Positions 26,792 through 64,000 of a stretch of 64,000 nucleotides of DNA are shown here, in pieces (the first letter of the stretch is position 1; every line of letters starts with the position of its first letter). The notes beneath the pieces are model-generated. The model was not told the origin of the DNA. It did no database searches and saw only the letters and a list, made by a program, of their open reading frames with translations. Source of the stretch: an uncultured Candidatus Saccharibacteria bacterium (GTDB taxonomy: Bacteria > Patescibacteriota > Minisyncoccia > UBA6257 > JAUSGH01). Location of the stretch: assembly GCA_964360025.1 (NCBI GenBank), contig CAYHUD010000001.1:3922-67921 (forward strand), written 5' to 3'. A program made the translations under genes and the position numbers.

Positions 26792-26868
26792 ATCTACGCG
26801 GTATCAGAGGCGGGAAACTTGCCGATTAACATATAAAAGTGTATCTTATAGACAGCATCGCGCGATAT

Positions 26869-42742: not shown

Positions 42743-42774
42743 CAAAAATAATTTAGTTTTACGATAAATGATTT

Positions 42775-42812
42775 TGTCCCCTATCTCGTCCCATGGGACG
42801 AGATAGGGGACA
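42775..42812. repeat. family B palindrome (tgtcccctatctcgtcccatgggacgagataggggaca)
   Basis: direct reading. Confidence 0.85.
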
Positions 42813-42892
42813 AAATAAAAAACACCTCGGCTACAAAGACACTCTTAACAGGAGTGGTTTTGTTTTGAACGTCTTTGTTCCTGAATCCGAAA

Positions 42893-42930
42893 TGTCTACT
42901 ATCTCAAACGATCGTTTGAGATAGTAGACA
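42893..42930. repeat. family B variant palindrome with different centre (tgtctactatctcaaacgatcgtttgagatagtagaca)
   Basis: conserved outer arms ACTATCTC/GAGATAGT, centre replaced by aaacgatcgttt. Confidence 0.8.
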
Positions 42931-42988
42931 TTTGAAAATTAAAATTATCTGATGATTGGAACCGGCAAACGGGCTTGCTTTTTGTCTA

Positions 42989-44663: not shown

Positions 44664-45398
44664 ATGGACATCAAGGGAATCCTCAACCAGGCGTTGGAAG
44701 TCGCTGACGTGGTCTATGTCGGCGATGATCGTGAAGTTTCGGTTTTCGCTTTTTTGGAGGAACAAAAGCGACAAGTAGGCCCGGCCTACCAGGCCGCAAA
44801 TGATGTGCGTCATCACTCCAAAATCGGAATGGTGGCGCTGAAGGAGAGTAACTACGCCCTGCTCGCCCTGTGCGCTCAGCGCATCGGAGAGAACATGGCC
44901 ACTCTCCGAAGATTGAACCTCCCCGCCGATCTGCTGTGGCAGCATATCGGCGAGGCTGGGCAGGAAGCCGGGGAGTTCATGCTGGTGCGTGAGCTCCACG
45001 AACTTCTCTTCCCCCGAGGCATGGTGCCCTCGGGATCCGAGCCGTTTGAGGGGGGGATGAATATCCCCTCAGCGACCGATCTCTGCCTCGAGCCGCAGGC
45101 GTGGCTCGCGGCATTGATCGACGCCACGAGCGAGCTGGGCAAGCTCGCCGTGGAACGGATGTGCCGCGGGGACATGACCCGCGCACAACATGTGGCGACG
45201 CTCCGGAGAATGCTGGAGATTGCCCGTACGGTGTACGGCTACCTTCAGAAATTTGAAGGGGCGGTTCCCATGATCATCAACAACAGCCGTCGCAGGGGGT
45301 ATGGAAATACCTTCCGCGGCGCGATGTACCGCATCGAGCGGCTGATTGAGAACAACGAGCTCGCCCTGCTCCGGATGGTGCAGGACGACTCCAAGTAA
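44664..45398 (+). CDS. hypothetical protein (244 aa), strongly GC-rich gene
   Basis: GAGGTG RBS; terminator follows. Confidence 0.55.
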   Translation: MDIKGILNQALEVADVVYVGDDREVSVFAFLEEQKRQVGPAYQAANDVRHHSKIGMVALKESNYALLALCAQRIGENMATLRRLNLPADLLWQHIGEAGQEAGEFMLVRELHELLFPRGMVPSGSEPFEGGMNIPSATDLCLEPQAWLAALIDATSELGKLAVERMCRGDMTRAQHVATLRRMLEIARTVYGYLQKFEGAVPMIINNSRRRGYGNTFRGAMYRIERLIENNELALLRMVQDDSK

Positions 45399-45423
45399 TA
45401 ATCGCCTGCTCGCAGTTTCAGGA

Positions 45424-45452
45424 CCCCCCACGGGATGTGGGGGGTTTTCATT
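45424..45452 (+). terminator. rho-independent terminator (ccccccacgggatgtggggggttttcattttt)
   Basis: hairpin + T-run. Confidence 0.7.
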
Positions 45453-45472
45453 TTTATGGGGAGAGGATCAAG

Positions 45473-45730
45473 TAGAGATTCTTCGCGCGACGCCTGCCTG
45501 CCGGCAGGCAGGCTCAGAATGACAAGGTGTAAAGCTCAGAAAGACAGGAGGAAAACGCGAATCAGGATGACCAAATGCGACGTTTAAGATGACAGAGGGG
45601 AACCGTGTCATCCTGAGGTCTACCGAAGGATCTCGGGATTGAGATTCTTCGCAAGGCCTGCCGGCAGGCAGGCAGGCTCAGAATGACAACGTGTTGCGCT
45701 TAGAACGACAGGGCTCTGCGCTCAGAATGA
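45473..45730. repeat. family A repeat array 3
   Basis: multiple gagattcttcgc..ctcagaatgaca, tgtcatcctgag..gaaggatctc and gcctgcctgccggcaggcaggc modules. Confidence 0.85.
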
Positions 45731-45752
45731 CGAAAAAGTAATAAGATAATTA

Positions 45753-46040
45753 TCAAAGATCCAATGATAAGTCCCTGAAATCAGGATTGTTTTCTTTAAT
45801 AAGAACTTCCTTTTTAATACGCGTCCAGCCTTTTATTTTCTTCTCCGCTAGAATAGCAAACTCTGGAGAATTAAATACTTCGTAGAATATCAGCTTGTTA
45901 AGATTGTATCTCTTTGTAAACCCATCAACTAATTTTTCTTTATGTTCCTGCATCCGACGACGAAGATTGTTGGTCATACCTGTGTATAAAACAGTGTGTA
46001 TTTTATTCGTAATTATATAGACAAAATAATTTTGGTTCAT
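45753..46040 (-). CDS. GIY-YIG nuclease family protein (small, ~96 aa)
   Basis: YFVYIITNKIHTVLYTGMTNNLRRRMQEH; six-frame N-terminal extension is repeat-derived. Confidence 0.75.
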   Translation of the reverse strand: MNQNYFVYIITNKIHTVLYTGMTNNLRRRMQEHKEKLVDGFTKRYNLNKLIFYEVFNSPEFAILAEKKIKGWTRIKKEVLIKENNPDFRDLSLDL

Positions 46041-46047
46041 AAAATTT

Positions 46048-46332
46048 AGAGATTCTTCGCGCGACGCCTGCCTGCCGGCAGGCAGGCTCAGAATGACGGA
46101 GAGTGGTGTCGGCGTCCTGGAATTAAATTCTGTCATCCTGAGCGAAGCGAAGGATCTCGGAATTGAGATTCTTCGCGAAGCTCAGAATGACTAGTGAATG
46201 TTTGTCATCCTGAGACTAGTTTCTGTCATCCTGAGGTTTGACGAAGGATCTCGGAAAAGAGATTCTTCGCGAAGCTCAGAATGACAAGGTGCAAAGCTCA
46301 GAATGACAAAGTGTTGCGCTCAGAATGACAAA
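46048..46332. repeat. family A repeat array 4
   Basis: five or more modules, begins 8 nt upstream of GIY-YIG start. Confidence 0.85.
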
Positions 46333-46340
46333 AATAAAAA

Positions 46341-47396
46341 TTACTTAGCAAAAGGATTCCTTGCACCAATCACTTCAAAGTGCAAATGGCAGCCCGTCGG
46401 GCCGTGGACATTGCCGGTGTTGCCGATATAGGCGATGGTGTCGCCTTGTAAAACATAGTCGCCTACCGAAACGACATTTTTAGAATTATGCGAGTAGCGG
46501 GTTTTCGTATTATTGGGGTGTTCAATCACAATGTAACCGCCATAGCCTTCGTTCCAGCCTCCGCTTTTTGACTCCGCGACCAGCCCCTCCGCCGCCGCGT
46601 AAATAGCCGTGCCGCAGGCGTTCGCGATATCCACGGCATTAAAATTATGCAGCTTGCCCCAGTTCCAGCCGGTAGTCGGAATGGCGTAATACCCCGGAAA
46701 GTTGGGTAACTTAGATGCTGTGGCTACAGTTGCCGGCGGTTTGACATCGGGAATAATTAAATTAACCCCTGCGTAAAGACCCTGGCTCAAAACTCTGGGA
46801 TTATATTTTAAAATACGCGACTCCGGTATGGAAAAAGACGCCGCAATGCTATCCAGCGTCTCACCGCTAGCCACTTGGTAAATAATGCCGGACACGGGCA
46901 AAATAGTAATCTCCTGGCCGATTTTAAGCGACGAACCTTTTACGCTTTTATTCGCCCAATAAATAGTATTTAAAGAGATGCCAAAGTTAGCGGCGATCTT
47001 AGAAAGGGTGTCGCCTTTCTGGATTTTATAAATAATAAGCCCATCGCGATGCACCAGCACGCTACTTTGCGGATTGCCGGTATTCAGGAAAGCCGAGTCG
47101 TCAATAATAAAAGAGCCGGGATCGTCATCGTCGCTCAAAATCATAATGCTATCATCGTCGGGCGCGCCGGATGCGCCCAGAGTGGCATCACTGCCCACAA
47201 AACCCAGCGAAGTTCCGTCACCCGGCCCTCCGCCGTTTCCGCCTTCCGCCGAAAAGGCCGTGCTGACCTCGTTCTGTAAAGAAATATTGATAAAAACGGT
47301 GATAATAAGCAAAACAACCGGTATGGCGACGGTTGCTCGGTGAATATGCTCCCGCAAGTGCTTTATTAACTTAGAAAACTTGTGTATATTTCCCAT
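46341..47396 (-). CDS. LysM-domain M23 family metallopeptidase
   Basis: two LysM-like segments (DTLSKIAANFGI, ETLDSIAASFSI) and M23 C-terminus (…IAYIGNTGNVHGPTGCHLHFEV). Confidence 0.8.
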   Translation of the reverse strand: MGNIHKFSKLIKHLREHIHRATVAIPVVLLIITVFINISLQNEVSTAFSAEGGNGGGPGDGTSLGFVGSDATLGASGAPDDDSIMILSDDDDPGSFIIDDSAFLNTGNPQSSVLVHRDGLIIYKIQKGDTLSKIAANFGISLNTIYWANKSVKGSSLKIGQEITILPVSGIIYQVASGETLDSIAASFSIPESRILKYNPRVLSQGLYAGVNLIIPDVKPPATVATASKLPNFPGYYAIPTTGWNWGKLHNFNAVDIANACGTAIYAAAEGLVAESKSGGWNEGYGGYIVIEHPNNTKTRYSHNSKNVVSVGDYVLQGDTIAYIGNTGNVHGPTGCHLHFEVIGARNPFAK

Positions 47397-47488
47397 TAGG
47401 CGTGATACTTATTTAAAGAAAAATCTACGGAAACGCAGGGTTCACGCTTTCTAAATATAGCATTTATGCGCCTTTTATTCAACCCCGT

Positions 47489-47540
47489 TAGAAGCCGCGA
47501 GGGCACACAGCGCGCCCCCTGCTTCTAACGGGGTCAACCC
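47489..47540. repeat. family D palindrome (ccccgttagaagccgcgagggcacacagcgcgccccctgcttctaacgggg)
   Basis: 12-bp terminal inverted repeats; second copy inside rsmA. Confidence 0.75.
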
Positions 47541-47563
47541 AACACTACCGAGACTCTAAAATA

Positions 47564-49432
47564 ATGGACGACCTTAATCCTCAGCAAAAACTAGCCGTCA
47601 ACCACCCCGGAGGACCGCTTTTAATCATCGCCGGAGCCGGATCGGGGAAAACAAAAACCCTGACTTCGCGTATCGTCCGCCTCGTAGAGTCCGGCGTCCC
47701 CGCCGCGGCTATTTTAGCCATCACCTTCACCAACAAAGCGGCTGAAGAAATGCGAAACAGAATAATGCGACAAGGGACAGGAGACAAACAAATCACCGCG
47801 GCGTTCATCGGCACATTCCACTCCTGGGGCGCGCGGGTTTTGAAACAGGAGGCGCGATTTTTCGGACGGACGGAAAACTTTTCCATCTTTGACGAGGACG
47901 ACAGCCTGCGGACGGTAAAAGCAATCGTCAAAGAAATGAATTTGGATAAAGAAAAATTTAATCCGGCGGGATTTCGCGCCAAAATCGGCGATATAAAAAA
48001 CGAACTTTTGTCTTCAGAGGATCTGCACGCTGAAGGAAGCGTCCGCGAAAAACTTGCCGCCGACATTTACGAAAAATATGAAGAGGCGCTCAAAAAAAAT
48101 AATGCTTTTGACTTTGACGACCTCATCACAAAAGTCGTTGTCCTTTTTATGCGGCATCCGGAGGTTCTGGAAAAATATAGAAATAAATATCAACAAATAC
48201 TCGTCGACGAGTATCAGGATGTGAACACCTCGCAATACCGATTGGTAAAACTTCTCGCGGAAAAACATAAAAACATAACCGTGGTCGGAGACGACGCGCA
48301 GGCGATTTACGCTTTCCGCGGATCGGACTTCCGCATCTTTTTAAACTTTGACCGCGACTGGCCAGATGCCACAATCATCAAGCTGGAAGAAAACTACCGC
48401 TCTACGGCGAACATCATTTCCGCCGCTTCAAACCTCATCAAAAATAATGTCCTGCAGAAACCGAAGTCGCTCTGGACGCAAAACGAAAACGGAGAAAAAA
48501 TCTCTATTGACGGCTTCGCGACCGAAGACGATGAGTCGTATTTTTTAACGACGCGCATTTTGGAAATAGTCCGCCGGACAAAAAATAATTCTTTACTAAG
48601 GATGGATCGCGATCCCCAGATCGCGATACTCTATCGGACGAATGCCCAATCACGCGCGATAGAACAAGCGCTCCTCCAAAACGGAATTCCTTACCGTATT
48701 TACGGCGGACTGAAATTTTATGACCGCATGGAAATCAAAGATATTGTTTCCGCGCTCGTCTCTGCTTCCAATCCCGAAAACGAGATGGCCCAAGAACGCA
48801 TCAGAAAAAATTTCGGGAAAAAAGAAGCTGCGCGTCTCATGGGTGAGATGCCGCGCCTCGCCCAAAAGTTACAACCCGCGGAACTCATCGGTTTTTTTCT
48901 GGAAGAAACAAGATATCTGGAATATTTGGAAAATAATTATAAAAATTATGCCGAACGGATTGAAAACGTCAACGAACTCATTTCTTTCGCCGGAACTTTT
49001 TCTCCAGATAATAAAACCCCCTCCGAAAAAGGAACAGGGCTTGCCGCTTTTTTGGAACAGATCAGCCTTGTGTCTTCGCTTGACACCCCAAACGGCAAAA
49101 TCAATAGCTGCTCCGGAAGGACGACGATCACCCTCATGACGATTCACGCTTCAAAGGGACTGGAGTTCAGTCATGTTTTTGTGGCGGGAGCGGCGGAGGG
49201 ATTTTTACCCCATGAAAGATCAATCACTGAAGAAAACGGACTGGAAGAAGAAAGGCGGCTGATGTATGTGGCAATGACGCGCGCCAAAGAACGGTTATTC
49301 CTCACTTTTTACGGCATTCCTTCGCGATTTCTCTACGAAATACCGCAAGAATTGACCGATTTTAAGGATCATGTAGCGACAAAACGGCGCCTAGCGTCGT
49401 TTGAGGACGAGGATTATATAAGTTATGATTAA
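47564..49432 (+). CDS. UvrD/PcrA/Rep-family ATP-dependent DNA helicase
   Basis: Walker A AGAGSGKTKTLTSRI, motif II VDEYQD, later helicase motifs. Confidence 0.9.
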   Translation: MDDLNPQQKLAVNHPGGPLLIIAGAGSGKTKTLTSRIVRLVESGVPAAAILAITFTNKAAEEMRNRIMRQGTGDKQITAAFIGTFHSWGARVLKQEARFFGRTENFSIFDEDDSLRTVKAIVKEMNLDKEKFNPAGFRAKIGDIKNELLSSEDLHAEGSVREKLAADIYEKYEEALKKNNAFDFDDLITKVVVLFMRHPEVLEKYRNKYQQILVDEYQDVNTSQYRLVKLLAEKHKNITVVGDDAQAIYAFRGSDFRIFLNFDRDWPDATIIKLEENYRSTANIISAASNLIKNNVLQKPKSLWTQNENGEKISIDGFATEDDESYFLTTRILEIVRRTKNNSLLRMDRDPQIAILYRTNAQSRAIEQALLQNGIPYRIYGGLKFYDRMEIKDIVSALVSASNPENEMAQERIRKNFGKKEAARLMGEMPRLAQKLQPAELIGFFLEETRYLEYLENNYKNYAERIENVNELISFAGTFSPDNKTPSEKGTGLAAFLEQISLVSSLDTPNGKINSCSGRTTITLMTIHASKGLEFSHVFVAGAAEGFLPHERSITEENGLEEERRLMYVAMTRAKERLFLTFYGIPSRFLYEIPQELTDFKDHVATKRRLASFEDEDYISYD

Positions 49433-49509
49433 ACATCGTTCAAAGAACGATGTTTAATGTGTGGGGGTGGGCGTGAAACACGGGGATTTAGAGACTAAGT
49501 ACAAATTCT

Positions 49510-50391
49510 ATGCACCAACGACTCGGACAACACTTTTTAATCAATAAATCGGCTATTGCGGAAACAATTGCCGCATTGACATTGGAGGAAAATGATTTAG
49601 TTGTGGAGATCGGGCCCGGGCATGGAGCTCTTACGCTACCCCTAGCTCAAAAATGTGTAGGTTTTAACTGCAAAATCATGGCTATTGAGAAAGACGCCGC
49701 GCTTGTGGATAACCTGTCAGAAACGATGCGGAAATACGGCAATATGGTGCAAATTATTGCCGGGGATGCGCTCGAAGAACTGCCTAAACTCGCAAAGCGC
49801 GAATCGCTGGGCGATGAAGACGGAAAAGGGTGGAAACTGGTGGGAAATATACCCTATTACATCACCGGAAAATTGCTAAGAATCATCGGGGAGCTAGAAA
49901 ATAAGCCCCACATTACGGTTTTGATGGTCCAAAAAGAAGTCGCGGAAAGGATAACAGCCACTCCAAAAGGGGGAATGAATCCCGTTAGAAGTAGCCCGCC
50001 CATAGGCCCTTCGGGCGCGCTTCGCGCGGGCGCGACTTCTAACGGGATGAATCTGCTTGCCGCCGCAACTCAATTCTGGAGCGATATTTCCATCATAAAA
50101 CGCTTAAAACCTAGCGATTTTGATCCGCCGCCAGAGGTGGACTCGGCAATAATTAAATTAAAGATCAAAGATCAAAGATCAAAAAGACGGGAGGCTGAGG
50201 GTTATTATAAATTGATCAAAATTGCCTTTAAACAACCAAGAAAGACGCTTTTGAATAACCTTGTAGATGGTCTTGATGATAAAAAAGAGGTGATTTTACA
50301 GAAAATCGCCGATTTGGGCTTTAACGAAAAAACTCGGGGGCAAGAATTGAGCGTGGAACAGCTTTTGGTTTTGGCGAGATCCTTCGGCTAA
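49510..50391 (+). CDS. rsmA: 16S rRNA (adenine1518/1519-N6)-dimethyltransferase RsmA/KsgA
   Basis: LGQHFL, VEIGPGHGALT, GNIPYYITGKLL; contains in-frame family D insertion; 3' end lies in repeat. Confidence 0.85.
   Translation: MHQRLGQHFLINKSAIAETIAALTLEENDLVVEIGPGHGALTLPLAQKCVGFNCKIMAIEKDAALVDNLSETMRKYGNMVQIIAGDALEELPKLAKRESLGDEDGKGWKLVGNIPYYITGKLLRIIGELENKPHITVLMVQKEVAERITATPKGGMNPVRSSPPIGPSGALRAGATSNGMNLLAAATQFWSDISIIKRLKPSDFDPPPEVDSAIIKLKIKDQRSKRREAEGYYKLIKIAFKQPRKTLLNNLVDGLDDKKEVILQKIADLGFNEKTRGQELSVEQLLVLARSFG
49979..50048. repeat. family D palindromic element inserted in frame in rsmA, flanked by ATGAAT direct duplication
   Basis: cccgttagaagt...acttctaacggg; encodes extra NPVRSSPPIGPSGALRAGATSNG between duplicated GMN codons. 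Confidence 0.7.
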
Positions 50392-50745
50392 CACCTCAGG
50401 ATGATAAAGAATAACCTCGGGACAACAAACACAACCCTGTCATTCTGAGCCTGCCTGCCCGCTTCGCCCGCCTAGACTCGGCGAGGCCTGGCCGTGGCTT
50501 CAGCGAGGCGAGCCGGCAGGCAGGCGTTGCGCGAAGAATCTCGAGATCCTTCGCTTCGCTCAGGATGACAAAAATTAGCCTCGGGATGGTCAACTAAGTA
50601 ACGAGATCCTTCGGCTAACACCTCGGGATGATAAAGAATAACCTCGGGACAACAAACACAACCCTGTCATTCTGAGCGTTGCGCGAAGAATCTCGAGATC
50701 CTTCGCTTCGCTCAGGATGACAAAAATTGGTTTCGGGATGGTTCG
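50380..50745. repeat. family A repeat array 5, includes ~225-bp tandem duplication (50386-50610 / 50611-50745) and nested long palindrome 50449-50526
   Basis: 'gagatccttcggctaacacctc.ggatgataaagaataacctcgggacaacaaacacaaccctgtcattctgagc' present twice. Confidence 0.85.
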
Positions 50746-50806
50746 CTAAGTGGTGCGAACCACTTATTCACATCTTGTTCACATCGGAGAATGATATAAT
50801 AAAGTA

Positions 50807-51583
50807 ATGCGAAAGCTTTTAACGCTCGGTTTCGTCGCAGTAATTTTGATTTTCTCCGCGCTTATAACTCTCGGCAACTGGAGTTTGAATGACGACAAAA
50901 AACAGGCGGCTGACGACTCTGCCAAAAATCCCGGCGTCTCTATTTCTTTTCCTCAGATTGAAGAGCAAAAAATAGCCGAGGCGTTGCTCCAAAAAACCCT
51001 CTCGCAGACCACAAAAATTCTGGGTGAAAATGCCACGAAAAAATTAGCCGACGATCTCTCCAAAGAAATAGTTGAAAAAAATCCTAACGGACCGGGACCT
51101 CTGGGAAGCCAAAAAATCAGCGTGCCGCAAGCAGAGGAAATAGTCGCCGATTTTTTGCAAAAGGGCGTGGATAATTTTAATTATGAAGAACTGAAGCCCG
51201 CGATTGCCGACTCCGATTTGAATATTGTTGGCGATGATCCCGCCGCGCTTGCCCGATATTATAAAAACTTTTTTGAAATCCTGAGCGGAAATTTTAATCT
51301 CGGCCCCGCCGAATCCGATCCGCAGAATTCTTTGGACATTCTGGTTTCCGTCTATGAGAACTACATTAAGAAATTTTATTTGTTGGAAACTCCTGAGAAA
51401 TTCGCCGACATACAGAAACAACAGATCTCGCTTCTCGCCGCTCAGAGAAATATTTACCGCCTGATGAGGGACTATGAAAATGATCCGCTTAAAGCCGTGC
51501 TGGCGATGAAGGCGCTTGACACGGTAAAACAAGAAACCGCCGATCTCTATACCAAGCTGGCGAAGACGGTGGCGAAAATTTAA
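50807..51583 (+). CDS. hypothetical membrane-anchored protein (first gene of T4SS-like cluster)
   Basis: N-terminal TM; co-directional cluster. Confidence 0.5.
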   Translation: MRKLLTLGFVAVILIFSALITLGNWSLNDDKKQAADDSAKNPGVSISFPQIEEQKIAEALLQKTLSQTTKILGENATKKLADDLSKEIVEKNPNGPGPLGSQKISVPQAEEIVADFLQKGVDNFNYEELKPAIADSDLNIVGDDPAALARYYKNFFEILSGNFNLGPAESDPQNSLDILVSVYENYIKKFYLLETPEKFADIQKQQISLLAAQRNIYRLMRDYENDPLKAVLAMKALDTVKQETADLYTKLAKTVAKI

Positions 51584-51625
51584 TAAGCGGTAATCAACAC
51601 GCAGAAAAGAAGAGCGAAAACTTAA

Positions 51626-53272
51626 ATGAAATTTTTAAAAAAAATAATTTTGGCGGGACTGCTGGCGGCGATGATTCTGCCGTATATGGGCGCGCCCCTC
51701 AAAGCGCAGGCGCAAGATGCCGCTTCAATATCCCGCGCCGCCACAAGAGCCGCCAGAATAGTAGCGGCGGAAGCGTGGGTCGCGGCGGCGACCGCAAGAT
51801 TTGAAGCGGCAACCTTGGCAGCCAGTTTCGTGCCTCCGTTTAATCCCTATTTGATAGTCCCCGGGGGACCTCTGATCGTGGCCGATTTCGGAGTCAGAAC
51901 CCAAGAGGCGGCGGCGGCGGCCGAAGAACTCGCCCGCGCCAGTAAAGCTCTGGCCGATGCCATAGCTGAAACGGAGGACAGTATTTTAGATATCTTGGAA
52001 AAAGTTCTTTTTGAAAGTTTGAAGAAAAAGATTTTGGATATGATGGTGGACCAGATCATCGGCTATATTCAGGGAGAGGGTGCGCCGCGTTTCATCACCG
52101 ACTGGGAGGGATTTTTCGGAGAAATCGCCCAGGGCGCCGTGGGCGATCTCGCGCAGGCACTCGGGGCCGGATTTCTCTGCTCGCCATTTAGTTTAAAAAT
52201 AAAATTAAGCTTACTCTTGCCGCCTGTTGAGAGATTTAAAACAAACTTCACTTGCACGCTGGACCAAATCGTCGGCAACATAGAAAATTTTTATACTGAT
52301 TTCCGAAACGGCGGGTGGATCGCCTATGAGGCGGCGTGGTCCCCGCAAAATAATTACTATGGCGCGGTCTGGCTCGCCTGGGACGCGAAACAGAACACGA
52401 TCGCCAGCAAACTTTTTGCCTCGGCAAATGAAGCGGTCGCGAACGCCGGATTTCTGGGTGTAAAACAATGCGATGAAAATGGCGAGAATTGCCGCACGGT
52501 CACTCCCGGAAAAGTTTTGGGTGATCTTGTCGGCAAAGCTGTCGGCTCCGACATTGACTTCCTCGTGAACGCCGAGGACTTGAGCACTTATGTCGCCGCT
52601 ATCGCGAACGCGCTCATCAATCGTATCGTCCGCGAAGGCGTGGGACTCGCCGGGGTATCGCTCCCCTCGCAACCGCAAAAAGTGCGGACGCGCCAGGAAA
52701 TTAATGGCGTGGTTTATGGTCCCGCGAATATCGCTCCCGACATAAGAAACACAATCAACCAATACACAACTTCAATCAACGACCAGACGGGACAAAGCTC
52801 CGGCGGAGCTCAAATCGCGGCGACTTCAAAAACGGATTTTATAGAGCAGTTAAGTGTAATCCGCGACATCAGGACGGAAGCTCAATCATTCCTCACACAA
52901 CGGCTGGATTTGGAAAAAATACTCTTAACCAAGATCCAAGCCCTGGCGGCTTGCCTGAAAAATAAAGAGGGTCTTGCCAATGCGGCGGCGGAAGCAAAAG
53001 TTGCGGCGCAGCAAAAGATTGTTAATGATGCCAGTAAGCAAGTAGGCGACAATCTAGCTGTTATCAATAACCTTAATAATGTAATCAATCAAATTTCTCA
53101 GTTAACCGAAGCTCAATTTGCAGGGCTGGGGTCTACACTGTCCATTTCCGCGGTTGCCGAAGCTATCTCGTTTAGAACTAACGCCAAAAATCAGAGGGAC
53201 ACGGCTCTGGCGAATGTTCCGGCCCAAGTCACGAACGCAGACAACGATCTCGTGGCATGTAACGCACTTTAA
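51626..53272 (+). CDS. secreted Ala-rich hypothetical protein (548 aa)
   Basis: signal peptide MKFLKKIILAGLLAAMILPYMGAPLKA. Confidence 0.5.
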   Translation: MKFLKKIILAGLLAAMILPYMGAPLKAQAQDAASISRAATRAARIVAAEAWVAAATARFEAATLAASFVPPFNPYLIVPGGPLIVADFGVRTQEAAAAAEELARASKALADAIAETEDSILDILEKVLFESLKKKILDMMVDQIIGYIQGEGAPRFITDWEGFFGEIAQGAVGDLAQALGAGFLCSPFSLKIKLSLLLPPVERFKTNFTCTLDQIVGNIENFYTDFRNGGWIAYEAAWSPQNNYYGAVWLAWDAKQNTIASKLFASANEAVANAGFLGVKQCDENGENCRTVTPGKVLGDLVGKAVGSDIDFLVNAEDLSTYVAAIANALINRIVREGVGLAGVSLPSQPQKVRTRQEINGVVYGPANIAPDIRNTINQYTTSINDQTGQSSGGAQIAATSKTDFIEQLSVIRDIRTEAQSFLTQRLDLEKILLTKIQALAACLKNKEGLANAAAEAKVAAQQKIVNDASKQVGDNLAVINNLNNVINQISQLTEAQFAGLGSTLSISAVAEAISFRTNAKNQRDTALANVPAQVTNADNDLVACNAL

Positions 53273-53344
53273 GGATTCGTCTCGGCTTGCCGGAAGAGCG
53301 CGGTAGTAATAACGCTCTCCTCAGGCAAGCGGAGAAAACAAAAA

Positions 53345-55366
53345 ATGTCCGGATTTATTAAAAAACACTATAAGACAATTATTTTGGCATCGCTTTTCGC
53401 GGTTCTAGTTTTGGGCGGCTTGGGAATAGGCACCGAAAATACCTTTGCCGCAGGAGATGACGCCGCTAAAGGAGGCGAGTCTCAAAAGGAAAGCGGGTGG
53501 ACAGCCGGATTCAAAGCCGCGATCGGCGCCCTCGTTATACCGATAATTTATAAAATACTTTACATTATCAGCTATATAGCCGCGATTATTTTCAAATTCG
53601 GCGGCTACCTCATAGACGCCGTCATCTCTCTCAATACGCAGATTCTGGGAAGCTCTATGGTAACCACCGGCTGGACGATCACGCGCGATTTTGCGAACCT
53701 TGGCTTCGTTCTCGCCATCATTTATATCGCCTTCGCCACGATGCTCCGCGTATCGTCTTTTGAGTTAAAAAAGTTCCTGCTCCGCCTCGTGATTATGGCT
53801 CTGCTTATCAACTTCAGCCTGACAATAGCGGGTGTGTTTATCAAGGCCTCCGATAAAGTCTCCGCTTTCTTTATTGAAAAAATAAGCGGCGAGGGCAGTC
53901 TTGCCGATTTCGCGCAAGTTCTTGCGGGACCCACCATTAAAGAAATTGCCGCTGGAGAGAAAACAGAAAAAGAGGAAGAATCCGGAATTATCTCTGCCGT
54001 AAAAACCGGCGCCCGCGTCGGGCTTGGAGTAACGACCTTTGGAATGTCTGAAATAGTCGGGGAGGCTCTTGATGCTTATAAATTATTAAGCGCCAAGAAT
54101 ACGGACGGCAATCTGGATCTTGGGGAATCGGCGCTCGTTATGGTAGGCAAGGTATTCTTCCTTACGGCGTTTACGGTGATGTCGGCGATTATCTTCTTTG
54201 CCATTGGCGTCATGGTTCTCGTCCGCTGGCTGTGGCTGGTCGTACTTCTGATTCTCGCGCCTTTCGCCTGGCTAGCCTTTGCCGTCCCGCAACTCACTAA
54301 ATACTTTGAACTCTGGTGGGATAAATTCTGGAAATGGACGCTCTATCTTCCTGTGGTTTTATTCTTTTTATACCTTGCCATGACGGCCACTCTCTCACCC
54401 AATATCAATTCCCCAACCACACCGTTCTTTTCCACCGCCAATCTCCCCGGATACCAAACAACGCCTATCGGCAATGATTTCGGTTCTTACGGTAAAATCA
54501 TCATCGCCATCGGCCTCATGGTCGCCGGACTGATCGTCGGAGAGAAAATGAGCATTGCCGGAGCGAAGACAGGACTTGCCGCGGCAAAAACCACGAGAGA
54601 CTGGGCGATAGGCAAAGTGAAGGGCGTTGCCACGGGTGTCGCCATGGGTGCTGCCGGATATGCTTTGAGAAATACCCTTGCGGGACACCAGGATAAAGAA
54701 GGAAGGACCCTGGGACAGCGCATCGCCGCCGGAATTTCCACCGTGCCTCTCCTTGGCACTGCGGCCGCGCGCGGACTGGACAGTATCTCCACGCGCCGCC
54801 CGCAGGAAGTTGATAATTCGCAGAAACAATATGCTAATATGAGCGACGCTCTCCTCATGTCCAGCGCTGAACAGGGCCTGTGGAGGTTCAGTGATCCGGA
54901 GACCGCTGCCGTTGTGCGGGAACTTGCTAAACGCAAAAAACTCGGTAAGCTGCCAACCGACCGACTAATGGAACTTGCCAAGAAAGGAAAAACCTATGGC
55001 GCGGAAAAGGAGGTTTATAAAGCCAGACCGGATCTCGCTGATAATCCGCTGGAGATATTCAAAGGCCTTAGCCCCGGACAAAAAGCCGAGCTGGCTCCGG
55101 ACGTTTACTATGAATCTAAGAAATCCAATGATCCTAAGAAGCGGGCGTTGGTACTTAGCTTGAAAGAAAAAGATTTGAGAGAAATCGCGGCCAAAGGATC
55201 GGACGAGGTTATTGATGCCATCACCGCAACCCTTAAAGAAGCCATAACGATGCATGCCGCCGGAGTAGGCGCGGGCGCGTTTACCCCGGCCGAAGAAGCC
55301 TCTTTAAAGGGGGTGCTGAAAGCTATAGATGACAATATCGGACTAAAATCAACGTTTATTTTCTAA
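53345..55366 (+). CDS. polytopic membrane protein, VirB6/TrbL-like candidate
   Basis: many TM helices, size and cluster context with VirB4. Confidence 0.4.
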   Translation: MSGFIKKHYKTIILASLFAVLVLGGLGIGTENTFAAGDDAAKGGESQKESGWTAGFKAAIGALVIPIIYKILYIISYIAAIIFKFGGYLIDAVISLNTQILGSSMVTTGWTITRDFANLGFVLAIIYIAFATMLRVSSFELKKFLLRLVIMALLINFSLTIAGVFIKASDKVSAFFIEKISGEGSLADFAQVLAGPTIKEIAAGEKTEKEEESGIISAVKTGARVGLGVTTFGMSEIVGEALDAYKLLSAKNTDGNLDLGESALVMVGKVFFLTAFTVMSAIIFFAIGVMVLVRWLWLVVLLILAPFAWLAFAVPQLTKYFELWWDKFWKWTLYLPVVLFFLYLAMTATLSPNINSPTTPFFSTANLPGYQTTPIGNDFGSYGKIIIAIGLMVAGLIVGEKMSIAGAKTGLAAAKTTRDWAIGKVKGVATGVAMGAAGYALRNTLAGHQDKEGRTLGQRIAAGISTVPLLGTAAARGLDSISTRRPQEVDNSQKQYANMSDALLMSSAEQGLWRFSDPETAAVVRELAKRKKLGKLPTDRLMELAKKGKTYGAEKEVYKARPDLADNPLEIFKGLSPGQKAELAPDVYYESKKSNDPKKRALVLSLKEKDLREIAAKGSDEVIDAITATLKEAITMHAAGVGAGAFTPAEEASLKGVLKAIDDNIGLKSTFIF

Positions 55367-55378
55367 CTTGTAAAAACG

Positions 55379-56515
55379 ATGGACAACAAAACCCTACGCA
55401 CAACTTTCCGTGCACTGCCAAGCGACATCAAAGACTGGCTTTTTTCCGAAAAAGTAACCTATTCGGTAGCAGAGTTAAATACCCGCCTTAATATAAAAGG
55501 CGAGCGTGCAGGTGTTGTTGCTAAACTGGTAGCGCGGCTTGTCGTCCAGGATTTGGATACTCGCGATTTCGTGAACGAATTGGCGATAGAGTTAAATGTC
55601 AGCAATTCCGCCGCTAAGGCCATCACTAAAGAAGTTGAGGAAAAGGTTCTACACCCGATAGAAGCATCGCTTCGCGCCAATCTGGGAATTGATGTGGCTA
55701 TGCTCCATATGGGAAACGAGGTTTCCCTGTCATCGATTACGCCCCTACCGGATGAAGCCGAAAAAACTCCGGCGCCGCGTACGCCTTTTTCCGTGCCTGA
55801 CGCCGCTAAAAGCGAAGCCACCCCACATATCTTCGCTCCGATGGCGCCTAAAGTTTCCGACACAAAAACCCCCTCCGGTCCTTTTATACTACACACCGAA
55901 CAAGAACCGGCGAAACCCATCGCGCCGCCCATAAACGCCCCGCAAAGACCCACTTTCTCTATAAAAATTCCTCTGGCGCAAAAGAAATACGGCGCTCCTC
56001 CCGTAACAGCTCGCATTGAAACCGGCGCACCCGAAACCAGAACTCCCGAGACGCAAAAGACATCCGAATTCCAGGGCTCACGGATCATTCCGGTACCGCC
56101 CTTGCGCCAGAGCCTCACCATACAGCCCCCGCGCCGTCCGGTTTCATTTGAACCAATACAACCAAGTACAGCCAATCAGGCTCCCTTGAAAATAACACCT
56201 CCGCCACTCCGCCGCCTGCCCCCACTTCCGCCTCTTATAAAACCACAAAACCAACAAATCACTACCGCGCCGTCAGCGGCTCCCAAACAAGAGATTTCCA
56301 TTCTACCCATAAATCCCGCCCTTCCTGTAAAACCAAGCGTCCCCGCTCCGATTCCGGCCAGACCGGCGGCGCCGCCTTTAACATTGCCGCCCAAAGTTTC
56401 TTCGCCCGCCGCGCCGAAACCACCCATGCCCCAGATTCCGCTAAAAACACCGACAAATACGGTGAACATCCAAAAAGTAGTCCACTATTCCGACTTTTTC
56501 ACAAAGTTACAATAA
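55379..56515 (+). CDS. Pro-rich hypothetical protein
   Basis: PPxP-rich low-complexity C-terminal half. Confidence 0.45.
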   Translation: MDNKTLRTTFRALPSDIKDWLFSEKVTYSVAELNTRLNIKGERAGVVAKLVARLVVQDLDTRDFVNELAIELNVSNSAAKAITKEVEEKVLHPIEASLRANLGIDVAMLHMGNEVSLSSITPLPDEAEKTPAPRTPFSVPDAAKSEATPHIFAPMAPKVSDTKTPSGPFILHTEQEPAKPIAPPINAPQRPTFSIKIPLAQKKYGAPPVTARIETGAPETRTPETQKTSEFQGSRIIPVPPLRQSLTIQPPRRPVSFEPIQPSTANQAPLKITPPPLRRLPPLPPLIKPQNQQITTAPSAAPKQEISILPINPALPVKPSVPAPIPARPAAPPLTLPPKVSSPAAPKPPMPQIPLKTPTNTVNIQKVVHYSDFFTKLQ

Positions 56516-56516
56516 A

Positions 56517-56990
56517 ATGCAATTTCAAGTCCCACAATTTATAGAAACGGAGGACACCATCATCGGCTCCATTACGATCAGGCAATTTGTCTATATGGGC
56601 ATTGCCGGACTCATCAGTTTCGTGTCTTTCTTTTTTTTAAACACTACTTTGTGGCTGATATTTACCGGCTTTGTAGGCACGATCGCCGGAGCTCTGGCTT
56701 TCATTAAATATAACGGCAGGCCGTTATCTAAAATCATCCTCGCCATGTTCAACTATCTCTGGAAGCCGAAAATGTTTTTATGGAGGAGAAAAGAAGAGTT
56801 GGAAGCCCTGCGCGCCGAGGAGGCAGCCAAAAGAGGATCTCTGCTCCAGAACTTGTGGCTGCGCGTCACTGCCGGGAAAGAAGCCATACCCAAACGCGCT
56901 GATGCGCCCAAGTCTCTTGAAGAACGCTATCAAGTGGTGGAGAAGATTAGTGGGGAGAGGGATATGGCAAAGAGGGTGGACTATCGGTAA
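56517..56990 (+). CDS. PrgI/VirB3-like small membrane protein
   Basis: MQFQVPQFIETEDTIIGSITIRQFVYMGIAG... typical PrgI-type N-terminus + 2 TM. Confidence 0.5.
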   Translation: MQFQVPQFIETEDTIIGSITIRQFVYMGIAGLISFVSFFFLNTTLWLIFTGFVGTIAGALAFIKYNGRPLSKIILAMFNYLWKPKMFLWRRKEELEALRAEEAAKRGSLLQNLWLRVTAGKEAIPKRADAPKSLEERYQVVEKISGERDMAKRVDYR

Positions 56991-57206
56991 ATCATGAATC
57001 GACTTAAATCCCTCCCTCAACCCGCTGCGCTCGCCCAGCCGCTCGCTTGCTTGTCCTCGCCGCTCGCCCGCCGTGCGCTACGCGCCTAAAACGGCGGACC
57101 GTGCTCTCACGGCTCCGGGGGTTTCGGAGAGGAATTTAAGCCGATTCATTAATAGTCAATCCCCGCGCAATTCCTGAATTAAGAATTTGTTTGTATAATA
57201 AAGTAT

Positions 57207-57866
57207 ATGCCACAACAAAAAGAAGCTCGGCCGACGCAAGAATTTGTAGAAATTGATCGCGCGGAACAAGGTGTGCTTGTTTTAAAAAACGGCTCTTTGC
57301 GCCAAATACTTTTAGTATCCGGGGTTAATTTTGATCTGAAATCCGAGGAAGAACAGCAGATGATTATTTCCTCGTATCAGGCGATGCTTAATTCCCTGCG
57401 CTTTTCCCTGCAAATTTTCGTCCATTCCCGAAAAATCAACATAGAATCGTATTTGGCAAAATTGGAAGCGCGCCTCGCGGAAGAAACGAGCGAGCTTCTA
57501 AAAAACCAGATTACGGAATATATGGAGTTTATCCGCTCTTTCGTAGGACAAAATCCCATCATGACGAAGTCGTTTTTCGTAGTTGTGCCCTTTGATCCCA
57601 TCGTCATACCTGGATCAGAAACAAAAACCGGAAAAAGATTATTTGGTCTTTTTAGAAAATCCTCCGCAGAGGGAAATACCGAAGCAAAACAGCATGAACT
57701 CCAGGAAAATATGCGCCAGCTTTCGCAAAGAGTGTCGCAAGTCGTTGCCGCGATATCGCAAATCGGCCTGCGGGCCGTCCCCCTGCAGAACGAAGAGGTG
57801 ATTGAGCTGTTTTATAATCTTTACAATCCCGAAGCGCAGGAGAAAAAAAGTCTGCCAACCGCATAA
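57207..57866 (+). CDS. VirB4-family N-terminal domain encoded as a separate ORF
   Basis: LVLKNGSLRQILLVSGVNFDLKSEEEQQMIISSYQAMLNSLRFSLQIFV parallels VirB4 N-termini. Confidence 0.5.
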   Translation: MPQQKEARPTQEFVEIDRAEQGVLVLKNGSLRQILLVSGVNFDLKSEEEQQMIISSYQAMLNSLRFSLQIFVHSRKINIESYLAKLEARLAEETSELLKNQITEYMEFIRSFVGQNPIMTKSFFVVVPFDPIVIPGSETKTGKRLFGLFRKSSAEGNTEAKQHELQENMRQLSQRVSQVVAAISQIGLRAVPLQNEEVIELFYNLYNPEAQEKKSLPTA

Positions 57867-57873
57867 TAATAAA

Positions 57874-59589: not shown

Positions 59590-59618
59590 GGTTTAGAAGA
59601 TAGGTTATCATCTTATTT

Positions 59619-60026: not shown

Positions 60027-60031
60027 GCTAT

Positions 60032-60715: not shown

Positions 60716-60717
60716 TT

Positions 60718-62441: not shown

Positions 62442-62454
62442 TGAGATGGGGATA

Positions 62455-62490
62455 AAAAAATCACTCCGATGACTGTCGGAGTGGTTTTTT
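62455..62490 (+). terminator. bidirectional rho-independent terminator (cactccgatgactgtcggagtggttttttt)
   Basis: hairpin + T-run between convergent genes. Confidence 0.7.
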
Positions 62491-62495
62491 TATGT

Positions 62496-62975
62496 TTAAA
62501 TGGGCTTTACGATGACGTAACGCGTGGGTCCTGATCCAACACTCTCCGTCTTAACATCGGGCCGCGTAGAGAGTTCTGTGTGCACCAAACGCCTTTCATA
62601 AGCATTCATCGCCGGCAAAGACACCTCTGCTTTACTTAAAAGCGCTTTTTTAGCGGCGGCTTTGGCGATTTCCACAATAAGGCGCTCTCTTTCTTTCCGA
62701 TAATTGTTAACATCAACAAAAATGTATTCGGCGCCCTCTTTTCTGGACGATAAGCGTAAAATTACCTCTAGATCAGAAACGATTTTGGGCACCCAGGGCT
62801 TAATCCATTCGTCTTCGTTGATGAAAATCCTAATCCGACGGCCTTCGGGCTCGGCCTCAACACTCACGTCGGAAAAACCCATCAATTCCAGCATTTTTTT
62901 AGTTGTTTCAATGATTTTCTCCATCCCGTTAGAGATGTCTGCCGCATTAATAGTTTGCTTTGCTATGTTTTCCAT
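62496..62975 (-). CDS. jag: Jag/KhpB-like RNA-binding protein (KH + R3H)
   Basis: C-terminal R3H (ERRLVHTELS) and position downstream of yidC. Confidence 0.7.
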   Translation of the reverse strand: MENIAKQTINAADISNGMEKIIETTKKMLELMGFSDVSVEAEPEGRRIRIFINEDEWIKPWVPKIVSDLEVILRLSSRKEGAEYIFVDVNNYRKERERLIVEIAKAAAKKALLSKAEVSLPAMNAYERRLVHTELSTRPDVKTESVGSGPTRYVIVKPI

Positions 62976-63010
62976 ATTTTTAATATTTAGAATTTGTTTG
63001 ATAGATATCT

Positions 63011-63718
63011 CTAACGGGATCCATTAGTGTTGGGTAAATTTAACTGCTTATTAATAATCCTCTGCTGTAATACGGAAAACGCAGACGATGTCATCCAATA
63101 AACACCTACCGCCGCCGGCAAACTCCATAAAATAACCAGGGTAAGGACGGGGCCGATATAAGACATCTTCTTTGCGATACGGGACTGATCTGTCTCCTCG
63201 CCGGGAAGCGTATGCGGAAGACTTAAGACGCTTTGATAGTACTGAAAAAGGGCTGCTAAAACCACAATCACTATACTCTTTTCCTGGAGATCAATCAAGC
63301 CCAGGGAGATTGTATTTAAATGTCCCGGATTGGAGATAAATGAATAAAGAACGTCCAGAGTGCCATCCGTAAATCCGCTCATAAATACTTTATAGAGGGC
63401 GATAAGTATCGGCAATTGGACCAGAATCAATAAAAATCCGGAAAACGGATTAACTTTATGGTTTTTATAGAGCTCCATCAAAGCGTGGGCCTGTTTTTCT
63501 TTGTCATCTTTATGAACATGTTGGATTCTTGCCACCTCCGGCTGTATTTTTTGCATAATGGTCTGCTGTTTGAAGCTTTTATAGAAAAGCGGGTAAAAAA
63601 TCAGACGAATAACTATGGTCAATAAAACAATGGCGATGCCGAGGTCGCTAAAAGTAACCGTGTTATATAAAGAGATAAGGATATTGAATAAGGGAATATA
63701 AAGCAGTGTTTGGAACAT
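63011..63718 (-). CDS. yidC: YidC/Oxa1-family membrane protein insertase (short form)
   Basis: 5 TM pattern, rnpA-yidC-jag order. Confidence 0.8.
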   Translation of the reverse strand: MFQTLLYIPLFNILISLYNTVTFSDLGIAIVLLTIVIRLIFYPLFYKSFKQQTIMQKIQPEVARIQHVHKDDKEKQAHALMELYKNHKVNPFSGFLLILVQLPILIALYKVFMSGFTDGTLDVLYSFISNPGHLNTISLGLIDLQEKSIVIVVLAALFQYYQSVLSLPHTLPGEETDQSRIAKKMSYIGPVLTLVILWSLPAAVGVYWMTSSAFSVLQQRIINKQLNLPNTNGSR

Positions 63719-63727
63719 AAATGGGGT

Positions 63728-63970: not shown

Positions 63971-64000
63971 GGAAAAATAAGCGTTTTTAACGTTTTTAAC

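Follow-up and report, generated by a model that had tools for sequence, protein, structure and literature searches.

Family D, a short hairpin element with ten-nucleotide inverted termini and a TNNA footprint, lies between genes and in frame within rsmA

Among the described systems, the Rickettsia palindromic elements (RPEs) are those to which the element analysed here, referred to as family D, is functionally closest. Both are short palindromic selfish DNA found in frame in genes that are unrelated and often have housekeeping roles, RPEs are translated as an extra peptide compatible with the protein fold, as copies of family D probably are, and both comprise several sub-families; RPEs, however, measure about 100-150 bp and are confined to Rickettsia (Ogata et al. 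2000, summarised in PMC10969869), whereas copies of family D are mostly 45-100 nt long and are spread over several phyla. Going by the descriptions, family D is further set apart by sharply bounded inverted termini of 10 nt and by a clear duplication of 4 bp. Because its hosts belong to unrelated phyla, membership of the RPEs is not claimed, and family D is best read as functionally like them.

A second point of comparison is provided by the bacterial MITEs, such as Correia/NEMIS, RUP, ERIC and the QMITEs of Coxiella. As in family D, these are non-coding, have terminal inverted repeats (TIRs) and a target duplication, and exist as many dispersed copies with occasional in-frame fusions, but each is found in a single genus, has an IS partner where one is known, and often duplicates TA (PMC10969869, PMC5896051, PMC3184786). 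Family D, in contrast, duplicates TNNA, has an extremely variable interior (5-140 nt), includes at least one sub-family whose PVR…SNG frame is open whichever way round the copy lies, and has no partner in the DNA searched. The REP/BIME (RAYT) sequences are also short GC-rich hairpins with high copy number and co-varying stems, but REPs carry a one-sided GTAG/CGTC tag, are extragenic and have no duplication (PMC3733652). In family D both ends are identical (YCCCGTTAGA), copies are often intragenic and the flanks are duplicated. Palindrome-associated elements derived from IS200/IS605 have neither inverted termini nor a duplication, their target tetranucleotide lies on the 5′ side only and their orientation is fixed; family D, with its inverted termini, two-sided repeats and unbiased orientation, differs on all these points. 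Finally, short T...A-type duplications (TTAA, TNA, YTAR) are made by piggyBac/IS1380 and IS5-family elements, whose termini contain CC...TAGA or GT..GAA motifs with a loose likeness to YCCCGTTAGAA, a resemblance that may serve as a lead to kinship and not as a classification.

Three copies of family D (E1, E2 and E3; Table 1) are present in the window, that is, the whole 64-kb stretch of DNA analysed, which comes from a groundwater bacterium. All have the ends YCCCGTTAGA...TCTAACGGGR and a perfect 4-bp direct repeat at both flanks, and none has coding capacity. The exact 9-mer CCCGTTAGA occurs six times in the window, as three inverted pairs, against a shuffle expectation of 0.38, and six occurrences were reached in 0 of 100 shuffles. 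The first-pass annotation had recognised two copies, both of which exist, and had missed E3; the intergenic copy, which it placed at 47489-47540 with a 28-nt spacer, is present with a shift of about 6 nt and reads CCCCGTTAGAAG-N27-CTTCTAACGGGG. This copy, E1, lies between a divergent LysM/M23 peptidase gene and a UvrD-type helicase gene, the ATG of the latter being 30 nt downstream, and its interior is similar to the insert that rsmA carries in a different genome (L003 10442). The left TCAA of E1 is overlapped on the minus strand by a promoter-like −35 hexamer, TTGAAT, which is a consensus match only. At the yidC/jag junction the yidC stop is now the terminal TAG of E3 (…NGSR-stop), and the jag ATG is formed from the terminal A of E3 and the duplicated TGGA. 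The copies fold into hairpins of −19.3 kcal/mol (E1, as DNA; z = −5.6), −26 kcal/mol (E2; z = −5.1) and −12.6 kcal/mol (E3; z = −4.6), and the other palindrome families of the window have no flanking duplication. The idea that the window copies act as terminators or promoters was considered and rejected: no terminator-like site (a GC-rich hairpin with a T run) coincides with E1 or E3, a −35 match overlapping a flank is all that was seen of a promoter, and E2 lies inside an ORF.

Table 1. Family D copies, their target duplications and the interrupted gene (positions in the window)
Feature	Position	Strand	Details
Element copy E1	47483..47533	.	51 nt, intergenic, ends C...G
E1 target duplication TCAA, left copy	47479..47482	.	
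E1 target duplication TCAA, right copy	47534..47537	.	
Host gene rsmA/ksgA (16S rRNA dimethyladenosine transferase, Pfam PF00398)	49510..50391	+	293 aa including the 24-residue insertion
Element copy E2	49980..50047	+	68 nt, inside rsmA, ends T...A
E2 target duplication TGAA, left copy	49976..49979	+	within ATG AAT, first Met-Asn
E2 target duplication TGAA, right copy	50048..50051	+	within second Met-Asn, then MNLLAAATQ
Element copy E3	62924..63019	-	96 nt, yidC/jag junction, AT-rich interior, ends T...A
E3 target duplication, jag side	62920..62923	.	TCCA on + strand, TGGA on gene strand
E3 target duplication, yidC side	63020..63023	.	TCCA on + strand

About 260 further copies were found in public genomes and metagenomes and were analysed as a set of 149 and an independent metagenome set of 111; in these, too, the inverted termini are conserved, the interior varies and four bases of the form TNNA are duplicated. 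Their length ranges from 23 to 153 nt. The commonest sub-family measures 66 nt and has an open PVR…SNG frame in both directions, and the sub-family of E2, with a conserved Y-shaped interior, has more than 110 copies elsewhere. The base outside CCCG is complementary to the base outside CGGG in 96% of the 149 copies and in 109 of the 111, and stem positions outside the 10-nt core differ among copies yet remain complementary. A perfect 4-bp direct repeat flanks 75 of the 149 copies (permutation mean 9.8, maximum 19) and 72 of the 111 (permutation mean 10, maximum 19), so that the search for more copies and for flanking duplications, envisaged when two copies had been noticed, ended far above chance. 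The central dinucleotide of the flanks matches directly in 84 copies and in inverted form in 13. In about one third to one half of the copies the perfect duplication is missing, which could be due to age or to a less uniform mechanism.

The length of the footprint had been taken as six bases, on account of the ATGAAT on both sides of the rsmA copy. The direct repeat is real, and the duplicated part of it is the 4-bp TGAA; the outer A and T are the terminal bases of E2, which by coincidence equal the neighbouring bases of the target. Indeed, a 6-bp duplication was rejected, as the two outermost bases agree in just 52-55% (149 set) and about 40% (111 set) of the copies whose TNNA is perfectly repeated. 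Targets show a weak extended preference, R-TNNA-Y, with no arm-like conservation beyond 6 bp. Their orientation relative to the interior is unbiased in the metagenome set (TCAA 17 versus TTGA 12; TGAA 9 versus TTCA 13), and the flank is not inherited with the element sequence (nearest-neighbour test, p = 0.07 and 0.23). An oriented or heritable target was also tried and rejected: a small cluster seemed to tie TCAA to one interior orientation, and the effect was gone in the larger metagenome set.

The reading that we regard as probable sees in family D a transposable element of the MITE type, one that is not autonomous, is moved in trans and duplicates TNNA, and that in rsmA has become an in-frame translated loop. 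More specifically, the mobile unit would consist of the two inverted termini, 5′-YCCCGTTAGA...TCTAACGGGR-3′, around a non-coding interior of 5-140 nt, and would enter targets of the form T-N-N-A, preferably with a purine before and a pyrimidine after, those four bases being duplicated on insertion as expected from a transposase acting in trans with 4-bp staggered cuts. The cutting would presumably be done by a DDE-type enzyme. Family D shares with MITEs a small non-coding body, TIRs, a duplication, dispersed copies and presence or absence at orthologous sites, and the MITE-like insertion proposed in the first-pass annotation is upheld by the dispersed copies, the inverted termini, the excess of flanking repeats, the empty sites and the RsmA orthologues, which mostly lack the segment. 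The same flanks bear on a site-specific recombinase, which might act on a circular or hairpin form with the core site TCTAACGGGR-TNNA-YCCCGTTAGA (4-bp crossover) and recombine it with genomic RTNNAY. Joined ends would presumably give a textbook inverted-arm core site, the R-TNNA-Y preference suits such a reaction and the window has a gene for a XerC/D-like recombinase, but the crossover should move along with the element and impose one orientation on it, and neither was observed; the flank tetranucleotides tend to be random with respect to element lineage, the targets lack arm-like conservation past 6 bp, and the window recombinase resembles an ordinary housekeeping Xer, so that this route appears very unlikely.

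The insertion into rsmA is where the element can be followed into a protein. As the first-pass annotation stated, a copy with ATGAAT on both sides (49979-50048) is present inside the 293-aa RsmA ORF; it is an in-frame insertion, as claimed, and element plus duplication amount to 72 nt, or 24 codons, instead of the approximately 23 residues first given. Since the PVR...SNG frame has no stop within these 72 nt, the rsmA frame remains open and the element should be translated, E2 itself reading PVRSSPPIGPSGALRAGATSNG. If the insert is translated, the junction peptides spanning it are predicted to be GGMNPVR and SNGMNLLAAATQ. An assembly artefact is not the cause, because replicate samples that were assembled independently (L001, L002) both contain the identical insert. 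KsgA homologues had been said to have no such segment, and the solved structures of B. subtilis KsgA (6ifs/7v2l) agree, aligning to RsmA residues 3-153 and 179-289 with a gap that leaves about two residues opposite the insert; the majority of RsmA orthologues are also without it. In the AlphaFold model of RsmA (mean pLDDT 88), residues 150-180 have a pLDDT of 51-57 and form a coil between helices 142-148 and 182-190, while the remainder of the protein is modelled with confidence. The target would have been TGAA within the codons ATG AAT, and the model suggests a 24-residue surface loop that the enzyme would tolerate and that is probably harmless.

Empty sites with a single ATGAAT were found in related genomes. 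For instance, the RsmA gene of a Harrisonbacteria genome reads AAA ATG AAT CTT, with a single occurrence, and a locus (L128) syntenic with another (L003) contains ATGAAT once in rsmA and once at the start of PrgI, where L003 has elements flanked by ATGAAT; canonical copies number 0 in 20.8 kb of L128 versus 7 matches at 6 sites (one tandem) in about 20 kb of L003. A near-identical empty allele of the window rsmA was not found in the databases, the next homologue being 54% identical; the allele is predicted to read GGGGGAATGAATCTGCTT. Family D may well still be active, and nothing in the data at hand shows recent movement in this population. Among RsmA homologues at least four interior sub-types or orientations occur at this one codon, while in the RsmA tree the seven other members of the window protein's clade are all without the insert, which indicates that the site has been hit repeatedly. 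We propose that independent hits on the same codon pair in other lineages are due to its match with the preferred target and its position in a permissive loop.

That several RsmA homologues have PVR...SNG at the same place could also be taken as the mark of an old, vertically inherited functional extension with many losses and no insertion. This is extremely unlikely and already contradicted by the palindromic DNA present in other contexts: these termini are also found between genes and across dozens of unrelated genes and phyla, the rsmA site holds interiors of different sub-families and orientations, RsmA of the nearest relatives has no such segment, and the Met-Asn codons are duplicated. 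An extra RsmA segment without palindromic DNA, which would have spoken for such an extension, was not seen; related RsmAs with an extra segment at this codon have the same palindromic termini in their DNA.

Life inside genes is a general habit of family D. A copy was counted as intragenic when spanned by an open frame with at least 50 codons on each side, and this holds for 37 of 149 copies (25%) and 37 of 99 (37%). Nearly all of these are stop-free, and their length is a multiple of three in 36/37 and 37/37 (73/74 in total), so that intragenic copies are presumably translated. Ribosomal bypassing is known from T4 gene 60 and the yeast mitochondrial byps, at sites with matching codons and a stable hairpin. 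The rsmA insert likewise has codons that match across it and folds stably, and removal of the insert at the RNA or translation level, intron-like or by bypassing, would yield RsmA without it; the constraint on length and stops, however, is expected only under read-through, and a search of 45000-64000 against Rfam 15 gave no family at E ≤ 1, which leaves this idea barely credible.

Family D is not private to the window genome. Its distribution is patchy and takes in many uncultivated bacterial phyla, its hosts including Patescibacteria, Omnitrophota, Planctomycetota, Desulfobacterota and Nitrospirota. Viral contigs gave 10 matches only, and BLAST against annotated plasmids and phages gave only chance GC-rich matches (E ≥ 0.6). 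A literature search on the terminal strings, on MITEs in Patescibacteria and on in-frame palindromes in CPR bacteria found no description of the family, which is apparently previously undescribed.

The trans-acting enzyme is hypothetical, since a search of 1.8 Mb of flanking DNA for an autonomous element bounded by family D termini (pairs 400-6000 bp apart) found none, the unpaired ends there being degenerate short copies only, and no recurrent transposase gene emerged among the neighbours, 1930 ORFs from the loci clustering into housekeeping families only; nor did a Pfam scan of 20 window ORFs detect a DDE transposase. GIY-YIG and Y1 genes, searched by tblastn against the loci, showed no association with family D. 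The lone Y1_Tnp gene seen lies on a relative's contig (L129), beside rsmA, and is flanked by another palindrome family, one copy of which sits in frame inside the Y1_Tnp gene with a 6-bp direct repeat; tblastn found no further Y1 genes in about 0.96 Mb of loci (L001-L129).

This Y1_Tnp gene and the missing DDE partner in the searched flanking DNA are among the arguments for a REP-like hairpin that an HUH/Y1 enzyme (RAYT or IS200/IS605-type) would move in single-stranded form, the repeat then being the target plus the 3′ cleavage tetranucleotide of the element. A single-strand hairpin substrate would look like family D, with co-varying stems and one strong hairpin, and the flanks are T-rich tetranucleotides, a known style of IS200/IS605 targets. 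The termini are symmetric, however, without the one-sided GTAG/CGTC tag, a carried 3′ tetranucleotide should be inherited whereas the flanks are not, no Y1 gene adjoins any family D copy in the searched loci, and 25-37% of copies are intragenic, unlike REPs; we therefore hold such a mechanism to be improbable. Somewhat less remote, though still unlikely, is an orphan hairpin transposon that crosses phyla and is adapted to intragenic life, its mover being a host-encoded enzyme or one of a new family, unrecognised as a transposase, from which the absence of a partner in the flanking DNA would follow.

Proteins of CPR bacteria and other groundwater lineages contain many unexplained insertions, and a MITE-type family D provides a tangible source for at least one such class, namely a mobile hairpin that can be recognised by its ends and its 4-bp footprint. 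These ends and the footprint can be used for annotating and dating insertions and for avoiding wrong calls of gene starts and stops (such as the yidC stop supplied by E3). The repeated hits at the rsmA codon, and possibly in other genes, are natural experiments on how much extra sequence a loop tolerates, and a 10-nt terminus shared across phyla without a known transposase defines a search for a possibly new mobilising enzyme. Should the orphan transposon be the true explanation, family D could quite generally supply uncultivated bacteria, with their streamlined proteomes, with new surface loops.

Family D, a hairpin element with the ends YCCCGTTAGA...TCTAACGGGR and a variable interior, is present in three copies in the window (E1 to E3 in the table), one more than the first-pass annotation had claimed; the copy in rsmA, with its ATGAAT flanks, lies exactly where that annotation had put it, while the intergenic copy exists at coordinates about 6 nt lower than those given. 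The window contains the exact 9-mer CCCGTTAGA six times, always in inverted pairs (shuffle expectation 0.38; none of 100 shuffles reached six), a strong single hairpin is predicted for each copy (z = -4.6 to -5.6 against shuffles), and perfect 4-bp repeats flank all three (TCAA, TGAA and TCCA). Both E1 and E2 are found unchanged in separately assembled contigs of replicate samples (Hainich groundwater 0.1 µm filtrate), so that neither the rsmA insert nor the intergenic copy is an assembly artefact. E1 lies between two genes, a divergent LysM/M23 peptidase gene, whose -35-like hexamer (a consensus match only) is overlapped by the left duplication, and a UvrD-type helicase gene, which starts 30 nt downstream of the element.

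Repeat features and associated genes (window positions unless a locus from another genome or metagenome, L-number, is named)
Feature	Position	Strand	Description
E1	47483-47533		intergenic; CCCCGTTAGAAG + 27 nt + CTTCTAACGGGG
E2	49979-50048		inside 293-codon rsmA ORF 49510-50391; ATGAAT on either side
E3	62924-63019		between yidC and jag; same termini, AT-rich interior; found by repeat scan
rsmA-site interior			window type (E2)
rsmA-site interior			GCCGCGAGGGC type, also that of E1
rsmA-site interior			third type, found in both orientations
Tandem or nested family D copies	L003 16244-16382; L095 2109-2190; L056 4621-4790; L014 2597-2760		one common duplicated target
LysM/M23 peptidase gene	46341-47396	minus	neighbour of E1
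UvrD-type helicase gene	47564-49432		neighbour of E1
TGTCCACTATCTCGTCCCA/TGGGACGAGATAGTGGACA palindrome	959-996, 2839-2880, 3495-3528, 26753-26792, 42771-42816, 42890-42933
GCCTGCCTGCCGGCAGGCAGGC palindrome	8543-8564, 8657-8678, 45473-45523		recurrent in window
GIY-YIG ORF	45753-46136
GGAAAACGTCAAACA... inverted repeats	10613-10658, 10862-10996
YraN/UPF0102 nuclease gene	10937-11365
TsaD homologue	38386-39630	minus	413 aa
Block downstream of rsmA	51626-53272 onwards; L003 11960-20843; L128 11635-20807		conserved
Y1_Tnp gene (RAYT-like)	L129 2849-3550	minus	adjoins rsmA
Palindrome flanking Y1_Tnp gene	L129 2822-2844, 3362-3390, 3567-3647

The ORF that holds E2 is a clear RsmA/KsgA (Pfam PF00398), and its nearest homologues (50-55% identical) come from Patescibacteria near Harrisonbacteria. 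Most of the 35 aligned homologues read ...PPK-MNLLAAATQ..., and the window protein reads ...GG-MN-PVRSSPPIGPSGALRAGATSNG-MN-LLAAATQ in the same alignment. The B. subtilis KsgA structures (6ifs, 7v2l) align in two blocks (residues 3-153 and 179-289), with about two residues opposite the insert, and an alignment-based AlphaFold model of the window protein (pLDDT 88, pTM 0.85) renders residues 150-180 as low-confidence coil with helices 142-148 and 182-190 on either side. Several other homologues carry insertions at the same point, starting with MN-PVR and ending with SNG-MN, with differing interiors and lengths; their DNA has the same termini with ATGAAT on both sides, and the interiors at this site are of at least four types or orientations. 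When the insert region was removed and a neighbour-joining tree was built, the window RsmA grouped in one clade with seven proteins, all lacking the insert, and insert-bearing proteins elsewhere in the tree were interspersed among empty ones. The simplest reading is one permissive, preferred site hit by repeated independent insertion.

Empty sites were found in a pair of genomes with the same gene order around rsmA, L003 (GCA_030646915.1), where seven matches fall at six sites within 20 kb (a tandem pair at one of them), and L128 (a Harrisonbacteria genome, GCA_016192685.1), which has none. Within rsmA, the L003 element is flanked by ATGAAT and L128 reads AAA ATG AAT CTT once. At the start of a PrgI-like gene, L128 has a single ACA ATG AAT TTT CAA, and L003 has two abutting elements, each after ATGAAT and before ATGAAT or ATGAAC, with the same MNFQ coding sequence next. 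The pair gives the before and after picture expected of a target-duplicating insertion, and the abutting elements show that a regenerated target can be hit again. The tandem or nested copies in L003, L095, L056 and L014 fit such re-insertion.

Family D spans phyla, beyond a single genome. With one genome searched per species, the pattern CCCGTTAGA, 26-56 nt, TCTAACGGG matched at least 120 stretches, and the matches listed come from many Patescibacteria classes, Omnitrophota, Planctomycetota (Pirellulales, Phycisphaerae), Cloacimonadota, Bacteroidales, Desulfobacterota, Syntrophia, Nitrospirota, Nitrospinota and one gammaproteobacterial MAG. In a first set of 149 simple copies tabulated from these listed loci, the base outside CCCG is C in 62% and T in 35%, and the bases outside CCCG and CGGG are complementary in 96%, so that the true ends of the element are Y...R. 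A perfect 4-bp direct repeat flanks 75 of the 149 (permutation mean 9.8, maximum 19), with the consensus T-N-N-A (most commonly TTTA, TGAA, TTCA, TAAA, TTGA and TCAA). The central two of the four flanking bases form a direct repeat in 84 copies and an inverted one in 13, so that the flank repeat is not a mere extension of the palindrome. Beyond a perfect repeat the adjoining bases agree in only about half of the copies, and the duplication is therefore of 4 bp and not 6. The 6-bp ATGAAT duplication originally proposed is thus reduced to TGAA in rsmA, to which the terminal T and A of the element add bases that here coincide with the neighbours of the target. A second, independent set, from a metagenome scan with the oriented interior of the rsmA copy (at least 111 unique sites), gave 72 perfect 4-bp repeats among the 111 sites listed, complementary ends in 109 of 111 and matching outer positions in about 40%. 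This rsmA-type interior, conserved between unrelated genomes, has a Y-shaped fold (14-bp outer stem, inner stem, two small hairpins), for which compensatory changes provide limited evidence.

Of the 149 first-set copies, 37 are spanned by open frames that extend 50 codons or more in both directions, and in 36 of these element and duplication together have a length divisible by three; the three length classes stand at 48:38:26 among non-coding copies. The frames read are PVR...SNG (30 copies) and PLE...LTG (seven), the third frame containing the TAG of the terminus. The rsmA-type sub-family has a modal length of 66 nt (66 of 111 copies); of 99 copies, 37 lie within genes, each a multiple of three in length, and both orientations are read (23 and 14). 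Only translation of the elements makes sense of these constraints on length and frame. Splicing or ribosomal bypass of the insert is argued against by these multiple-of-three, stop-free copies, and Rfam has no family matching the region.

Symmetric termini, the 4-bp duplication, empty sites and tandem re-insertions support the proposed MITE-like (miniature inverted-repeat transposable element) interpretation and, with a loosely palindromic target preference (R-TNNA-Y), point to a transposase acting in trans, which would probably move family D by cut-and-paste or copy-and-paste, the behaviour by which MITEs are defined. Alternatively, the flanking tetranucleotide could be carried by the element, as predicted for single-strand HUH enzymes or for recombinases with a crossover core. 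When the predictions of both were tested, flank sharing between nearest-neighbour elements was not above chance (p = 0.07 and 0.23), which speaks against an inherited flank, and an early small-sample hint of a fixed target orientation was absent in a larger sample (TCAA 17 versus TTGA 12; TGAA 9 versus TTCA 13). Because the element ends are perfectly palindromic, an enzyme acting on either strand is compatible with the orientation test, which is therefore insufficient on its own. What weakens the MITE model is that its enzyme is missing: the analysis found no long element with family D termini at its ends in 1.8 Mb of flanks, no transposase among the recurrent neighbouring genes (housekeeping families) and no DDE transposase among twenty window ORFs scanned, which include a Xer-like recombinase, a GIY-YIG protein and a YraN-like nuclease. 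A Y1-transposase gene adjoins rsmA in one relative, and the palindrome flanking it belongs to another family. The termini and T...A-type duplication presumably resemble those of piggyBac/IS1380 or IS5-family transposons.

Insertion also affects gene boundaries. At the yidC/jag junction the gene strand reads ...ACT AAT GGA T|CC CGT TAG, so that yidC ends in ...NGSR* on the TAG of E3, and the last A of E3 plus the duplicated TGGA forms ATGGAG, the probable start of jag; by their sequence, the two genes would overlap if E3 were absent. The same 'ESR*...ATG' type of arrangement is found at another junction in a relative. An ATG directly adjoins one end of the element in 75 of 294 copies (all loci), because the T...A-ended class lands on TGNA, and gene callers can therefore mis-set starts there; the automated ORF call runs jag 17 codons into E3. 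Copies with different interiors (L221, L223, L180) share the left flank ACGAACyTTCAT, whose reverse complement ATGAAAGTTCGT would start a gene with Met-Lys-Val-Arg, presumably (a guess) ribosomal protein L36; here, too, a start codon may be a site of recurrent insertion.

Further repeats accompany family D. The near-perfect, spacerless palindrome of about TGTCCACTATCTCGTCCCA/TGGGACGAGATAGTGGACA has no flanking direct repeat at any of its six window copies and may be bound by a protein or constitute a further repeat family. Translated GCCTGCCTGCCGGCAGGCAGGC forms the '...SLPAGRQAS...' N-terminal extension of the GIY-YIG ORF, and 'LPAGR'-like peptides interrupt RsmA homologues at other positions. 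In-frame insertions at other positions occur in the aligned homologues P0053, P0075, P0076, P0069, P0071 and P0026 (alignment A1), with peptides such as LDSRLRGND, CHSREGGNPE and SLPAGRHG; the sequences suggest translation of several more repeat families in these lineages. At L129, the palindrome ACTTTGTGAGGTCsGACCTCACAAAGT flanks the Y1_Tnp gene, with one copy in frame within it (flanking direct repeat TTACGA), and also encodes the RsmA C-terminus ...FVRSDLTK. The GGAAAACGTCAAACA... family brackets the start of the nuclease gene, and the TsaD homologue, with its Pfam match in two stretches, may carry another internal insertion. In the relatives, the proteins encoded by the block downstream of rsmA are type IV secretion-like or conjugation-like (TrbL_3, PrgI, TraC-like, VirB4/DUF87); the window ORF 51626-53272 is 39% identical to the first member of the block.

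Family D is absent from annotated plasmid and phage collections, and full-text literature searches (terminal strings; MITEs or in-frame palindromes in these phyla) returned no description of it, although silence of the searched library does not mean that it is unpublished. It lacks the features that define REP/RAYT repeats, IS200/IS605 derivatives, transcription terminators and curated RNA families. Descriptively it agrees with a bacterial MITE, except for the autonomous partner, of which none was found. The closest functional precedent is the Rickettsia palindromic elements, selfish palindromes with in-frame insertions in housekeeping genes, whose products tolerate them as added surface segments (PMC10969869). 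Family D explains one class of puzzling protein insertions in uncultivated bacteria, and sets a clearly defined task, to find the enzyme responsible for its movement.
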